Origin: a virus
Direction: 5' to 3' (one strand)
DNA: 8,707 nt
UHGV virus genome: UHGV-0140516
Below are positions 1,111-5,838 of the stretch, piece by piece. The notes beneath the pieces were generated by a model. It ran no database searches, was not told the DNA's origin, and saw only the letters and a list, made by a program, of their open reading frames with translations. A program made the position numbers and the translations under genes. Every line of letters begins with the position of its first letter. Position 1 is the first letter of the stretch.

Positions 1111-1320
1111 ATGCGCGAAATAAATGAAGATCGTGTAATCCGTGAAAAAGAATGCAGAGAGCTAACAGGCGTTTGCCGTACAACTCGTTATGAGATGGAA
1201 AAACAAGGCCGCTTTCCCTCCCGTATCAGTCTTGGAGGTCGTTCGGTTGGCTGGGTTAAGTCTGAGGTTATGGAATGGGTTAAAAGCCGGGATCGCATTA
1301 ATTCAGGAAAGGCAGCGTAA
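1111..1320 (+). CDS. alpA: AlpA-type (MerR-like HTH) prophage regulatory protein / excision-transcription regulator
   Basis: The 69-aa product MREINEDRVIREKECRELTGVCRTTRYEMEKQGRFPSRISLGGRSVGWVKSEVMEWVKSR shows the AlpA pattern (HTH, then FP-x-x-I-x-LG-x-R-SVGW-x-x-E-V-x-EW). ATG at 1111 is preceded by AGGG at 1101-1104. The track start at 1027 is GTG with AAGAGG abutting it at no spacing, so it is disfavoured. Confidence 0.75.
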   Translation: MREINEDRVIREKECRELTGVCRTTRYEMEKQGRFPSRISLGGRSVGWVKSEVMEWVKSRDRINSGKAA

Positions 1321-1710: not shown

Positions 1711-1890
1711 TTACTCCTGCTCTTTGGCCTTCCGGCGCTGGCGGCGTTTGATCTCGCCACGCATGGCTGTAACGATAAACTGCGCGTCTGTTTCGTTTTC
1801 CTCTTTGACCAAATTCATTTCGCTTAAAACTTCTAGAGGGATTCTAGCCGTTTTTTGTTGTGATTTGTTGTTGGTTGTACCCGTTGGCAT
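1711..1890 (-). CDS. Small Arc/Mnt-like ribbon-helix-helix DNA-binding protein (putative repressor), divergent from the replication operon
   Basis: Internal Met of the 115-aa minus ORF. ATG at 1890-1888 is preceded by a strong SD (AAGGAGG, complement of 1896-1902) at 5-6 nt spacing. The 59-aa product MPTGTTNNKSQQKTARIPLEVLSEMNLVKEENETDAQFIVTAMRGEIKRRQRRKAKEQE aligns with P22 Arc (RWPREVL / AEENGRSVNSEIYQRV versus RIPLEVL / KEENETDAQFIVTAMR). Basic C-terminal tail. Confidence 0.55.
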   Translation of the reverse strand: MPTGTTNNKSQQKTARIPLEVLSEMNLVKEENETDAQFIVTAMRGEIKRRQRRKAKEQE

Positions 1891-1951
1891 TACTGGCCTC
1901 CTTACTGTTAGGTGGCGTTCAGTATACGTAGAAAAAAAAATAAAAAAAGGC

Positions 1952-2002
1952 TTGAAGTGCAAGTCACCTAAAAGTAGCATAATCTTCAAAGGTGACTTGC
2001 AC
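1952..2002 (+). promoter_or_regulatory. Candidate sigma70 promoter for the replication operon, overlapped by a 13-bp perfect inverted repeat (putative operator)
   Basis: -35 TTGAAG at 1952-1957, 17-bp spacer, -10 TAGCAT at 1975-1980 (CATAAT at 1978-1983 as alternative). Inverted repeat GTGCAAGTCACCT at 1957-1969 and AGGTGACTTGCAC at 1990-2002 brackets the -10. On the opposite strand, a TATACT -10 (complement of 1921-1926) lies upstream of the RHH gene. Confidence 0.4.
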
Positions 2003-2083
2003 CTTAAAGACAAAGCCCCGCAAGTGTCGTTACCACTCGCAGGGCTTCTAACCACCAACGATAACGATAGTATCGAGGTAGCT

Positions 2084-2287
2084 ATGAGAAATCATACCAC
2101 ACACCCGCAAGGGCGGGACTCGCACAACCTGAATAAATACATCTGGCGTTTTATCGCCCTGAGCACGGCACAACCGCGCGTGATTACCATTGAGGCCACC
2201 AGCGAACAGGAAGCCCGCCAGCAATCCCCGGCTGGCTGCGTGATGGTATTCGCCGCCCGTATTCGTCAGGGGGTGTGCCATGCCTGA
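2084..2287 (+). CDS. Small hypothetical protein (67 aa), first gene of the replication operon; possibly of the short Icd-like family seen next to P4-type primases (unverified)
   Basis: ATG at 2084 with GAGG at 2075-2078. It is the 3' part of the long 1190..2287 track ORF, and only this part has a start and RBS. Product MRNHTTHPQGRDSHNLNKYIWRFIALSTAQPRVITIEATSEQEARQQSPAGCVMVFAARIRQGVCHA. Its stop overlaps the start of the next ORF (2280/2287). Confidence 0.5.
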   Translation: MRNHTTHPQGRDSHNLNKYIWRFIALSTAQPRVITIEATSEQEARQQSPAGCVMVFAARIRQGVCHA

Positions 2288-2606: not shown

Positions 2607-2906
2607 ATGAGAACATATTTATCTGGCTTGACTGCCAGCGGTTATGCACACCCCAAAATTATCCCCGGCGCTATTTATCTGGATAAGAACGGTAACAGAG
2701 TAACGGTAAAAGAACTGATGTTTGACCGTGTGTATTTTATTCGTGATGGATATTCATTTCATAGTTCGCTGAACGTGGAGATCTTTATTAGCAGATTCAG
2801 GCGGGAAATCCCGCTTTCCGGAAATAACCATGTGTCATGTCTGGATGTTGATAAAAAACTACAGGAACTGAAAAACATGATTGCCGCGTGGAGAGAGCAG
2901 AAATGA
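2607..2906 (+). CDS. Hypothetical protein (99 aa), unknown function
   Basis: Starts 7 nt after the upstream stop. Its TGA (2904-2906) overlaps the primase ATG (2903-2905) in an ATGA arrangement. No recognisable motif. Confidence 0.5.
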   Translation: MRTYLSGLTASGYAHPKIIPGAIYLDKNGNRVTVKELMFDRVYFIRDGYSFHSSLNVEIFISRFRREIPLSGNNHVSCLDVDKKLQELKNMIAAWREQK

Positions 2907-4720
2907 AAAAAGCGCCAAATTTAAAACACCAGCCGCGTGACAAAATGACGGAAGTCATCATTTTTGCGGGTAGTAATGCGTGGGCACATGCGAAGCAGTG
3001 GCAGGAACAGGACGGGCGACTGGCTGGCGATAACGTGCCTCCTGTCTGGCTTGGAGAGCAACAACTTGCCGAACTGGACAACCTGCAAATCGTACCGGAC
3101 GGACGCTATCGCGTGCGTCTCTATCAGGCGGGGTTATTGCGTCCGGGGCTTGTTAATACCATCGGGCAGAAACTGGCAGTGGCAGGTGTCAGGGATGCTG
3201 ATTATTACCCTGAAGGAATGCACAGCCAGAAACGGGAGAACTGGCGCGAATATCTGGAACGTGAACGGGCAGAGCAGGCGGAAAAGAAAAAGGTAGTTGA
3301 ACTGCCTGTAAAGAAAAAAGAGCGGGTAAAAGACGATAACGCTTCATCACTGGCGCTTAACCAGATGGGAGCAAGTCAACGCGGCGAAGTTCTCCTGGCA
3401 CATTATGGCGGTGAACTGGCGATTCATGCTGACTCTGACACTGTTCACCATTACAACGGCGTTGTATGGGAGCCAGTACAGGATAAAGAATTACAGCGAG
3501 CTATGGCACAGATTTTCATTGATGCGGAGATCAGCTATTCGCAGAACGCCATTAAATCGGCGGTCGATACCATGAAGTTAAGTTTGCCTGTAATGGGGAA
3601 TACAGCCCGTAACCTGATTGGATTCAGTAACGGGGTATTTGATACCAGAACAGGTAATTTTCGGGAGCATAACAAAAACGACTGGTTGTTAATTGCCAGT
3701 GAATTACCTTTCAGCCCACCAGCAGAGGGGGAAACGCTGGCAACACATGCGCCGAATTTCTGGAAGTGGTTACGCCGTTCGGTGGCTGAGAATGACCGCA
3801 AGGCGGATCGCGTACTGGCTGCATTATTCATGGTGCTGGCGAACCGGTACGACTGGCAGTTATTCATTGAGGTAACAGGTCCAGGGGGAAGTGGTAAAAG
3901 CGTGATGGCGGAGATTTGCACCATGCTGGCGGGTAAGGCCAACACAGTATCGGCAAGCATGAAGGCGCTGGAAGATGCAAGGGAACGCGCGTTAGTGGTT
4001 GGCTTTTCGCTGATTATCATGCCGGATATGACCCGCTACGCTGGTGATGGGGCAGGGATTAAGGCTATTACAGGCGGTGACAAGGTGGCAATTGACCCGA
4101 AACACAAAGCCCCCTACTCAACGCGTATTCCGGCAGTAGTGCTGGCGGTTAACAATAACGCCATGTCATTCAGTGACCGCAGCGGGGGGATCTCACGTCG
4201 TCGGGTGATATTCAATTTTTCGGAAGTTGTACCGGAGAACGAACGCGATCCAATGCTGGCGGAAAAAATAGAAGGTGAGCTGGCGGTAGTGATTCGCCAT
4301 CTGCTTACACGGTTTGCTGACCAGGACGAAGCCAGACGCCTGTTATATGAGCAGCAGAAATCTGAAGAAGCACTGGCGATAAAGCGAGAGGGGGATTCGC
4401 TGGTGGACTTCTGCGGCTATCTCATGGCGTCGGTAATGTGTGATGGCCTGTTAGTGGGTAATGCTGAAATTGTGCCATTCAGCCCACGCAGGTATCTCTA
4501 TCATGCCTATCTGGCTTATATGAGGGCACATGGGTTTGGTAAACCTGTAACACTGACGCGCTTCGGTAAAGATATGCCGGGGGCAATGGCGGAATATGGC
4601 AGGGAGTATATGAAACGGAAAACGAAGCACGGTTTTTGTTCAAACGTGACACTGACGGAGGAATCAGAAGACTGGATGCCATCATGTGTATCGGTCACTA
4701 ATGACGATAGTAAAAATTAA
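2903..4720 (+). CDS. P4-alpha-like primase/helicase replication protein (D5-type NTPase)
   Basis: 605-aa ORF. ATG at 2903 is preceded by GGAGAGAG at 2890-2897; the track start at 2888 is GTG. Walker A GPGGSGKS is encoded at 3878-3901, in frame. Followed immediately by the cognate-type iteron array. Large and well anchored. Confidence 0.85.
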   Translation: MKKAPNLKHQPRDKMTEVIIFAGSNAWAHAKQWQEQDGRLAGDNVPPVWLGEQQLAELDNLQIVPDGRYRVRLYQAGLLRPGLVNTIGQKLAVAGVRDADYYPEGMHSQKRENWREYLERERAEQAEKKKVVELPVKKKERVKDDNASSLALNQMGASQRGEVLLAHYGGELAIHADSDTVHHYNGVVWEPVQDKELQRAMAQIFIDAEISYSQNAIKSAVDTMKLSLPVMGNTARNLIGFSNGVFDTRTGNFREHNKNDWLLIASELPFSPPAEGETLATHAPNFWKWLRRSVAENDRKADRVLAALFMVLANRYDWQLFIEVTGPGGSGKSVMAEICTMLAGKANTVSASMKALEDARERALVVGFSLIIMPDMTRYAGDGAGIKAITGGDKVAIDPKHKAPYSTRIPAVVLAVNNNAMSFSDRSGGISRRRVIFNFSEVVPENERDPMLAEKIEGELAVVIRHLLTRFADQDEARRLLYEQQKSEEALAIKREGDSLVDFCGYLMASVMCDGLLVGNAEIVPFSPRRYLYHAYLAYMRAHGFGKPVTLTRFGKDMPGAMAEYGREYMKRKTKHGFCSNVTLTEESEDWMPSCVSVTNDDSKN

Positions 4721-4731
4721 ACTTATGGAAT

Positions 4732-4963
4732 AACTGTTCACCACTGTTCACCCTGTCATAAATATCTTTTATATCAGTATATTATAGGGTGAACAGTTAT
4801 TTATGAACTGTTCACCAAACTATTCACTGTTCACCTTTTTGATTGTTTATTGAGCTTCAAGGGTGAACAGTGGTGAACAGTTGGTGAATAGTTTTTGTGA
4901 AACTGTTCACCCCTTAACATTATGAATTAAAAGATAAAATATCAAAAGGTGAACAGGTGAAGG
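4732..4963. repeat. Replication-origin iteron array (P4 ori/crr type): at least 9 perfect TGTTCACC / GGTGAACA octamers in both orientations with AT-rich spacers
   Basis: Plus-orientation TGTTCACC at 4735-4742, 4745-4752, 4809-4816, 4828-4835 and 4904-4911. Minus-orientation GGTGAACA at 4788-4795, 4862-4869, 4872-4879 and 4948-4955. Degenerate copies at 4821-4828, 4883-4890 and 4956-4963. AT-rich stretches at 4760-4786 and 4918-4946 are candidate unwinding elements. TGTTCACC is the octamer I recall as the P4 alpha-protein binding iteron. Confidence 0.8.
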
Positions 4964-5007
4964 GTTAAAACGCAAAAATTTTAATTTACTGCTGTGAGAT
5001 AAAGCCT

Positions 5008-5686: not shown

Positions 5687-5710
5687 AAGCCGGAGAAGTC
5701 CGGCTTTTTT
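5687..5710 (+). terminator. Rho-independent terminator after the SSB-like gene
   Basis: Stem AGCCGGA (5688-5694), loop GAAG, stem TCCGGCT (5699-5705), then a T6 run ending at 5710. Confidence 0.7.
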
Positions 5711-5720
5711 ATGCCCCAAA

Positions 5721-5758
5721 AAAAGCCCGATAAGGTCAGAGGGTCTTATCGGGCTTTT
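5721..5758. terminator. Second hairpin with A-run and T-run flanks (possible bidirectional terminator)
   Basis: AAAAGCCCGATAAG (5721-5734), a 10-nt loop, then CTTATCGGGCTTTT (5745-5758). Confidence 0.5.
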
Positions 5759-5838
5759 GCATATGAGGCTTTTATCTAACAGTATGGTGACTACTGTTGC
5801 CGGAAATCATTTCACAATTTGCAACACAACTCAACATT

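Follow-up and report, generated by a model that had tools for sequence, protein, structure and literature searches.

The stretch of DNA discussed here, called the window, comprises 8,707 nucleotides of the virus genome UHGV-0140516. Between positions 1711 and 2084 of the window, a small minus-strand gene for a putative ribbon-helix-helix (RHH) protein stands back to back with a plus-strand operon that begins with an Icd-like gene and continues into replication genes. We think it likely that this protein is a repressor, and that it guards the replication operon through short operators of the form GTG-N5-CAC, with an antisense RNA over the start of the Icd-like gene as a second layer of control. 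The sequence features, fold prediction, conservation, covariation and cassette exchange described below were computed; from them we infer that the protein binds DNA, represses the operon and regulates its own gene, and that the RNA exists and acts. An original prediction, made from the letters of the window, had already pointed to a divergent switch at this place, in which an Arc-like repressor faces the operon promoter across a 13-bp inverted repeat. Much of that picture is retained here, although the unit of recognition and the relationship to Arc have to be described differently.

The gene itself is an open reading frame (ORF) of 59 codons at 1711-1890 on the minus strand, with its ATG at 1890-1888, and its product reads MPTGTTNNKSQQKTARIPLEVLSEMNLVKEENETDAQFIVTAMRGEIKRRQRRKAKEQE. 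Its Shine-Dalgarno (SD) sequence, AAGGAGG (1897-1903, minus strand), lies 6 nt before the ATG and is indeed the strongest among the 14 gene starts compared, with an anti-SD duplex of -12.1 kcal/mol (the next reaches -10.7 kcal/mol). The gene faces the promoter of the icd-primase (replication) operon, as had been claimed. The further statement that it is the only convincing minus-strand gene of the window was wrong, because a second ORF of 65 aa at 1456-1653 on the same strand matches phrog_21027 (E = 4.7e-49) and is annotated by RefSeq as a gene at the same position in relatives.

The inverted repeat was also found as described. GTGCAAGTCACCT (1957-1969) and AGGTGACTTGCAC (1990-2002) are perfectly complementary over 13 nt across a 20-nt spacer, and the pairing extends to 18 nt at 89% (1952-1969/1990-2007). 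When the intergenic region 1891-2083 was shuffled 3000 times with its dinucleotides preserved, the longest perfect inverted repeat averaged 6.0 nt and never exceeded 11, so that none of the 3000 shuffles reached 13. Between the arms lies TAGCAT(AAT) (1975-1983), whose first six bases (1975-1980, plus strand) form a -10-like element of the predicted rightward promoter, 17 nt after the -35 element TTGAAG (1952-1957, plus strand); the repeat therefore brackets the plus-strand -10, as predicted. Each arm contains an 11-nt site, and exact copies of GTGACTTGCAC occur only twice in the window. The first, operator O1 (GTGCAAGTCAC, 1957-1967; 15-mer AAGTGCAAGTCACCT, 1955-1969), belongs to the left arm and fills the spacer of the rightward promoter, a position that is kept in relatives while the core varies. 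The second, operator O2 (GTGACTTGCAC, 1992-2002; 15-mer AGGTGACTTGCACCT, 1990-2004), belongs to the right arm and covers approximately +6 to +16 of the same promoter; in relatives with a shorter spacing, the equivalent site overlaps the -10 and the transcription start. On the promoter of the RHH gene itself, a degenerate, third operator-like site, CTGAACGCCAC (1912-1922, minus strand), overlaps the -10 and the start. The -10 of that promoter is TATACT (1921-1926, minus strand), and between the two back-to-back promoters runs an A/T tract (1930-1949), whose T-rich character is kept in the consensus of 59 related regions and which may serve the rightward promoter in the manner of an UP element.

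The arrangement was then compared among relatives. A scan of one genome per species gave 62 loci, with 59 distinct regions and, for RNA folds, 53 distinct loci. Their genera include Escherichia, Citrobacter, Cedecea, Serratia, Pectobacterium, Dickeya, Yersinia, Xenorhabdus, Proteus, and Morganella. In 57 of the 62 loci, the RHH gene stands back to back with an Icd-like gene, and homologues of alpA, the known activator gene of these islands, of the integrase or of the primase lie within 3 kb in about 50 of the 62. When the loci are aligned on the RHH start codon and read from the icd side, nearly all have the same layout: the icd start and SD, two hairpins, a GTG-N5-CAC site, a spacer of 7-24 nt, a second GTG-N5-CAC site that abuts TTGA(A/C/G)G on the icd strand, an A/T tract, TATACT, a third site of the form (C)TG-N5-CAC, the SD, and the ATG. 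The TTGA(A/C/G)G hexamer abuts the proximal operator, with at least four of six -35 matches, in 57 of the 59 distinct regions, a TAnnnT hexamer follows 16-18 nt from the -35 in 56, and TATACT has the same position in 49. In most relatives, the word directly after TATACT repeats the two upstream operators with zero or one mismatch. This third site on the repressor promoter has to be added to the original prediction, and the conserved antisense RNA with its terminator-like hairpin (2012-2084), described below, falls within the coordinates of that prediction and was missed by it. It should be mentioned that the promoter and hairpin assignments rest on this conservation across loci, not on a consensus scanner.

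The orientation of the two upstream copies is not constant: they are inverted in loci of the window's type and are direct repeats in many relatives. For this reason, the functional unit is, as far as these alignments indicate, the 11-nt GTG-N5-CAC site, and the inverted symmetry that first drew attention to the region appears incidental. The same observation bears on a different explanation, namely that the inverted repeat is an RNA or DNA hairpin, such as a terminator or a processing site, and does not consist of protein sites at all. A stem of 13-18 bp is possible, and microRNA models in Rfam match it by chance as a hairpin. However, many relatives carry direct repeats at the same positions, where no hairpin can form, and this excludes such a role; moreover, a third copy of the word stands at the other promoter, and when we looked across relatives for compensatory changes that would keep the arms paired, we saw the opposite. 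The hairpin explanation therefore has almost nothing left to recommend it.

An argument for a cognate protein comes from the way in which operator and protein vary. The N5 core differs between loci together with residues 11-17 of the RHH protein, and there is one strand class for each operator class. Proteins with the strand SQQLNARF go with the operator GTGAATCGCAC, those with SQMTTVRI with GTGAAATACAC, those with SKKLEARV with GTGTCAGCCAC, those with SQQIVSRV with GTG(A/C)ATGCCAC, and those with SLQ(V/L)SVRL with GTGAACACCAC, while the strand of the window's protein, SQQKTARI, is paired with GTGACTTGCAC. Mantel tests of the operator 11-mer give correlations of 0.64 for the strand segment, 0.53 for the remainder of the protein, 0.23 for the Icd-like protein, and 0.086 for AlpA. 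Given Icd, the partial correlation between operator and strand is still 0.62; given the strand, the operator's partial correlation is 0.07 with Icd and -0.13 with AlpA. In addition, there are 23 pairs of loci whose AlpA proteins are at least 90% identical and whose operators are different, and 17 pairs whose AlpA proteins are at most 50% identical and whose operators are the same. Specificity thus appears to reside in residues 11-17 of the N-terminal strand, at the positions of Arc Q9, N11 and R13, and in the N5 core of the operator. In a plausible reading code, the GTG/CAC flanks, which are invariant, would be contacted by R16, which is invariant as well, and the variable core by the likewise variable residues 12-14.

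A natural exchange makes the same point most sharply, within a pair of closely related islands. EcCICFT073, a phage-inducible chromosomal island (PICI) of E. coli CFT073 that serves as an experimental model, is 96-100% identical to the window at positions 2011-2270, which hold the hairpins and icd; within this part, the icd DNA at 2111-2210 is 100% identical although the operators differ. The 3' end of the RHH gene (approximately 1690-1760) is likewise near-identical, with about 57 of 61 bases alike in the alignment at 1700-1760, a count read from the alignment and not a per-segment figure. Between these two parts, at 1760-2010, where the N-terminal two thirds of the protein and the operators are encoded, identity falls to 54-70%. 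In EcCICFT073 the protein starts MATGTTNAKSQALKARVPHEIV and has the strand segment SQALKARV, and its operator word GTGGGCCACAC occurs twice, flanking TATAGT after TTGACG. The operators and the reading part of the protein thus seem to have been exchanged as one cassette, in the manner of lambdoid immunity regions. E. coli strain 143 supplies the complementary case: its protein and both operators are identical to those of the window, and the spacer between the operators differs.

Covariation, the swap in EcCICFT073, and strain 143 together argue that the RHH protein, and neither AlpA nor the Icd-like protein, recognises the sites. As expected of a repressor and its operators, the repeated sites lie on core promoter elements, and their sequence is specific to the cognate protein. 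In this sense, the repressor/operator part of the original prediction is supported, in that the repeat appears to be the cognate operator; what has to be given up is the idea that its inverted symmetry matters. It might still be supposed that the repeats are bound by something else, be it AlpA, the Icd-like protein or a protein of the helper or the host, and that the 59-aa protein is unrelated to them. The alpA and Icd-like genes are nearby, and PHROGs labels Icd-like families ‘transcriptional repressor’. On the other hand, the operator tracks neither AlpA nor the Icd-like protein in the correlations given above, the icd DNA is unchanged between two islands with different operators, and each operator class maps to a single β-strand class of the RHH protein. 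AlpA and the Icd-like protein were therefore rejected as operator binders, and we regard another binder of any kind as very improbable.

The 59-aa protein belongs to the YlcI/YnfO family, which is uncharacterised. It passes the NCBIfam model NF041551 (YlcI/YnfO) with 62.9 bits against a cut-off of 30, over residues 9-50, and RefSeq gives its homologues the same name; it has no Pfam match. In an alignment of 114 homologues, 17 columns are invariant, among them N7, K9-S10, A15-R16, P18, Q37-F38-I39-V40, E46-I47, and R49-R50-Q51. An AlphaFold model of the monomer, built on the homologue alignment (mean predicted local distance difference test score, pLDDT, 82.7), has an extended N-terminus followed by helices at 19-28 and 35-58. 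This is the check by fold prediction that had been proposed for RHH topology, and the protein shows the strand-helix-helix arrangement of the RHH (Arc/MetJ/CopG) superfamily. In Pfam, sub-threshold matches of family members point to two RHH families, PF07704 (best E = 0.009) and PF18064 (best E = 0.011). We conclude that the predicted fold is RHH. In this superfamily, a dimer reads the major groove with a two-stranded antiparallel sheet, and the covariation of operator cores with residues 11-17 lends indirect support to such a mode of reading here. The specific kinship with Arc is another matter: residues 8-32, covering the predicted β-strand and helix A, share 11 of 25 positions with P22 Arc in a single-pair BLASTP comparison (E = 0.002, with an Arc sequence entered by hand), and Arc was not found when the family profile was searched against the sequences of the Protein Data Bank (PDB). 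The likeness is only suggestive and does not establish a specific homology to Arc.

The best structural matches of the protein are the RHH antitoxins Rv0298, TacA and ParD, and a small ORF, the 65-aa one, is next on the same strand. These two facts raise the question of whether the two genes form a type II toxin-antitoxin pair, with the RHH protein as its antitoxin, and the repeats only autoregulate that pair. However, the 65-aa ORF has no match to a toxin family and was not found in the other 62 loci, where the RHH gene is conserved; the two genes are 57 nt apart; the C-terminus of the RHH protein is a short, invariant, basic tail and not a toxin-binding region; and two of the three sites lie on the promoter of the divergent operon. 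With no conserved partner gene adjacent to it, the toxin-antitoxin assignment was rejected, and we consider it very improbable.

The second layer of the proposed switch is an RNA. Between O2 and the icd start codon lie two hairpins that are better formed on the minus strand. The first, SL1 (2049-2084, minus strand), is complementary to the icd SD and start codon, and the second, SL2 (2004-2048, minus strand), is terminator-like, with a stem at 2013-2047 and a U-rich tail at 2004-2012. In SL2, G·U pairs of the minus-strand RNA correspond to A·C mismatches on the plus strand, and the hairpin is stabler on the minus strand in 52 of the 53 distinct loci (mean -22.9 vs -17.0 kcal/mol; Wilcoxon p = 2.7e-10). 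Compensatory changes occur in 11 of its 14 pairs; its alignment cells are paired in 95.1% of cases, as compared with 82.6% after shuffling (none of 500 shuffles was as high) and at most 47.6% when the partners are slid. An 87-nt minus-strand RNA from 2086 to 2000, which covers the icd SD and ATG by position, has a minimum free energy of -40.1 kcal/mol (z = -7.2), and the two-hairpin fold is better on the minus strand in all 53 loci (-36.3 vs -24.4 kcal/mol). Of the 21 pairs in its consensus structure, 12 show compensatory changes, and the pairs of SL1 covary as well.

A candidate extended -10 promoter for this RNA, TGGTATGAT (2091-2099, minus strand), lies inside icd codons 3-6; it has no -35 match, which is a weak point of the RNA reading. 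In nearly all aligned loci, a TAnnnT box lies upstream of SL1, at 6-8 nt from its base, in spite of differences in the icd residues encoded there. It was also observed that in the 5' coding region of icd at 2097-2125 (GAGTTTGGGTA on the minus strand in most loci) the third codon positions are conserved across genera. This exceeds what the protein needs, and the pattern fits an overlapping promoter or RNA element. The conserved antisense structure, the terminator-like hairpin and the complementarity to a ribosome-binding site (RBS) that characterise a cis-antisense (sar-like) RNA are thus all found here, and the minus-strand RNA of approximately 80 nt (about 2004-2084) looks like a cis-antisense RNA to icd, probably a new one that is not in Rfam. 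Rfam searches of the whole window and of 1900-2130 gave no match above chance, and the covariance models of C4, isrK and the P4 CI immunity RNA (RF01695, RF01394) had no match at E up to 1 for the former or up to 10 for the latter, so that these RNAs were rejected as relatives. The RNA could also be a long leader or mark a second promoter for the RHH gene.

Taken together, the switch that we favour would work as follows. The RHH protein would bind as a dimer to the 11-nt GTG-N5-CAC operators; with O1 in the promoter spacer and O2 at about +6 to +16 occupied, RNA polymerase would be denied access to the rightward promoter. This would silence the operon from the Icd-like gene through the genes for DUF4222, primase-helicase, SSB, and the capsid-like proteins. 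The RHH gene would be read divergently from the back-to-back promoter with the -10 TATACT, and in relatives, the third operator over this -10 and the start would provide negative autoregulation. An antisense RNA starting approximately at the icd start codon and ending at the terminator-like hairpin just before O2 would be fully complementary to the icd RBS; it would block icd translation and possibly downstream expression, mopping up leaky icd mRNA. Repression and antisense RNA together would keep the replication and late genes silent in the integrated island.

Several results weigh against this reading. At the level of the protein, PDB sequence searches with the 59-aa protein and with the family profile returned no RHH relative, Foldseek matched nothing in the PDB to the AlphaFold model, and no Pfam RHH model exceeds its threshold for the window's protein or for members of the family. 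At the level of DNA, the segments that covary are adjacent to each other, so physical linkage contributes to the signal, and the covariation could in part be due to it and not to recognition. The spacing of the operators (7-24 nt) and their relative orientation vary among relatives, which is unusual for cooperative binding. A consensus scanner with a threshold of 9/12 called no sigma-70 site in the intergenic region; the rightward promoter was missed because it matches at 8/12. The RHH gene's own promoter has no -35 match and shows a T-tract upstream instead. The consensus terminator scanner did not call SL2, whose U-tract is interrupted. Finally, the third site in the window matches the operator at only 6 of 11 positions, and for this reason, autoregulation is doubtful in the window's allele. 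The third site is also diverged in E. coli strain 143.

A further objection comes from experiments on EcCICFT073, where AlpA is required for induction, is sufficient when overexpressed, and is itself induced by helper phages (PMC6092414). Because AlpA alone induces this island, the RHH repressor may not be the checkpoint of induction. From this arises an explanation in which the switch is real but does not sense the helper: the helper induces alpA, and transcription driven by AlpA then gets around the repressed promoter or overrides it, for instance by reading through from the alpA promoter over the minus-strand genes into the operon, while the RHH protein and the RNA only set basal silence and immunity between related islands. 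We regard this as quite possible, if short of probable. It agrees with the presence of the same RHH module in EcCICFT073, with a consensus scan that found no plus-strand terminator-like site between alpA and icd, and with the many specificity classes of operator and strand, which fit an immunity function. Furthermore, the AlpA of P. aeruginosa, which belongs to the same Pfam family as satellite AlpA, is a processive antiterminator according to two reports (PMC7969949, PMC9371919). With an antiterminator of this kind and no terminator between alpA and icd, an AlpA-modified polymerase could, speculatively, read from the alpA promoter into the operon. This route would require both antitermination by satellite AlpA and transcripts over 1320-2084, and the bypass is compatible with the RHH switch that we favour and does not exclude it.

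For the relief of repression by the helper that the original prediction supposed, one possible route was considered, in which helper phages encode a homologue that poisons the RHH dimer. A tblastn search of the 59-aa protein against 50,697 phage records gave no match, and the idea was dropped, which leaves no candidate anti-repressor. The ‘putative repressor’ of EcCIMP1 is likewise not a counterpart: it is a PerC-family protein that acts on the LEE (enterocyte effacement locus) island and is unrelated to the RHH switch. Rather tentatively, we suggest that Gram-negative PICIs, including EcCICFT073, hold an unrecognised immunity region, in which a YlcI/YnfO RHH master repressor with interchangeable specificities and a cis-antisense RNA together represent the ‘missing’ repressor; they would silence the islands, define incompatibility or immunity groups, and be overridden by helper-induced AlpA.

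The gene order of the window is the 3' part of an integrase gene (49-693), alpA, the two small minus-strand genes, and the plus-strand operon. The alpA gene (about 1111-1320, plus strand; PF05930, E = 8.2e-18) points towards the minus-strand genes and is thus convergent with them. At 1348-1367, 28 nt past the alpA stop and downstream of the 65-aa gene, a strong terminator-like site was noticed on the minus strand (GGCGACCGCCCCCGGTCGCC and then a T run), where there is no plus-strand T run; since this terminator sits there, the transcripts of alpA and those of the minus-strand genes converge at this place. The 65-aa gene, whose function is unassigned, lies downstream of the RHH gene and was not found outside Escherichia-type loci. 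The last 17 nt or so of the two minus-strand genes are nearly alike, AAAGAGCAGGA(A/G)TAA (1456-1475 and 1711-1730), and AKEQE is the C-terminus of either protein. A short duplication is one possible origin, a recombination joint where the exchangeable cassette ends is another.

The controlled operon begins with the Icd-like gene (2084-2287, plus strand; 67 aa; NCBIfam NF033153, 69.8 bits), which has the SD GAGG at 2075-2078. It continues with a 106-aa ORF, a DUF4222 gene, a D5/P4-type primase-helicase gene (2888-4720, plus strand), an SSB gene, a major-capsid-like gene, and a decoration gene. Directly downstream of the primase gene, at 4729-4966, there are at least 11 copies of GGTGAACAGTT / AACTGTTCACC in both orientations, which look like the iterons of the island's replication origin. 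The interval 5687-5781, which follows the SSB gene, holds a back-to-back pair of GC-rich hairpins with T and A runs. They came to notice only through chance matches to Rfam, and they look like a bidirectional terminator between the replication genes and the capsid-like genes.

Because gene order and gene sizes equal those of EcCICFT073 (NC_004431.1, 1377930-1388654), the window is, to judge from its gene content, the left half of an EcCICFT073-type satellite. In that island, the ‘YlcI/YnfO family protein’ C_RS30120 is divergent from the ‘Icd-like protein’ C_RS30125. It was also noticed that in EcCICFT073 (NC_004431.1, 1380242-1381052) the RHH gene and its two neighbours, the small gene that follows it and the Icd-like gene, carry late-numbered RefSeq tags (C_RS30800, C_RS30120, and C_RS30125). 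From the tag numbers alone, this suggests that these genes were missing from the original annotation behind the experimental papers. Some part of this 1.1-kb region has a match in 1566 of 5426 complete E. coli genomes.

In the literature searched, we found no paper on an RHH repressor, on these operators or on this RNA in enterobacterial satellites, and no later paper that names a repressor of these satellites; a single paper speaks of YlcI/YnfO in satellites, where it figures as an accessory ‘prophage-associated protein’. Enterobacterial phage satellites are common, and their induction is understood only as far as the helper turning on alpA. If the module works as we suppose, it would give a function to an uncharacterised protein family, account for the silence of the replication operon, make the immunity groups of islands predictable from operator and β-strand classes, and add a new small RNA. 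Since the module is present in the experimental model EcCICFT073, it can be tested with simple genetics, and it bears on the engineering of PICIs as delivery vehicles.

The module can be compared with several known regulatory regions. In logic, P22 immI is the closest, followed by lambda OR and P1 immI. In P22 immI, the RHH repressors Arc and Mnt, the divergent promoters Pant and Pmnt, and the sar antisense RNA are found together. The window resembles it in its small RHH repressor, in operators that sit inside the -35/-10 spacer and at the start site of a promoter, opposite the divergent promoter of the repressor, in a candidate short antisense RNA over the RBS of a gene in the controlled operon, and in an N-terminal strand motif that resembles Arc's (xRxP, then EVL). 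It differs in having one RHH gene instead of two, with three copies of one operator type, and in an operon of satellite replication functions where that of P22 encodes an antirepressor; moreover, homology to Arc is not established at the sequence level, and the RNA has no relative in Rfam.

With lambda OR (PR/PRM, OR1-OR3), the module shares back-to-back promoters and three operators, two on the lytic-type promoter and one on that of the repressor. As in lambdoid immunity cassettes, the recognition part and the operators appear to be swapped together between otherwise near-identical elements. In contrast to lambda, the protein is of the RHH and not the helix-turn-helix type, there is no sign of a cleavable C-terminal domain, and operator spacing and orientation vary among relatives. 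The P1 immI region (C4 RNA, icd, ant) and the CI RNA of P4 are similar in that an RNA acts on the leader and RBS of an icd-like first gene of an operon; however, C4 and CI arise by cutting of the sense transcript and have repeated sequences as their targets, and the Rfam models of C4 and isrK do not match the window.

Among satellites, the Stl/Rpr repressors of Gram-positive PICIs, including the pathogenicity islands of Staphylococcus aureus (SaPIs), are also encoded divergently from an excision and replication operon (PMC6092414). In contrast to the 59-aa protein of the window, for whose island type the published inducer is AlpA, Stl proteins have a helix-turn-helix, are of far greater size, and lose their activity on binding helper proteins. 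YlcI of prophage DLP12 and YnfO of prophage Qin in E. coli K-12 are the namesakes of NF041551, the model passed by the window's protein. K-12 YlcI has an RHH-like sequence pattern, and its gene differs in setting: in its lambdoid prophage it neighbours cos and diverges from the terminase gene nohD (NC_000913.3, 580251-580834), and no GTG-N5-CAC sites were seen in its upstream region. The family may have a separate, packaging-related role in lambdoid phages. What sets the module of the window apart from all these systems is the combination of a single RHH protein from an uncharacterised family, one operator used three times, and a putative RNA without known relatives, in a satellite that already has a known regulator in AlpA.

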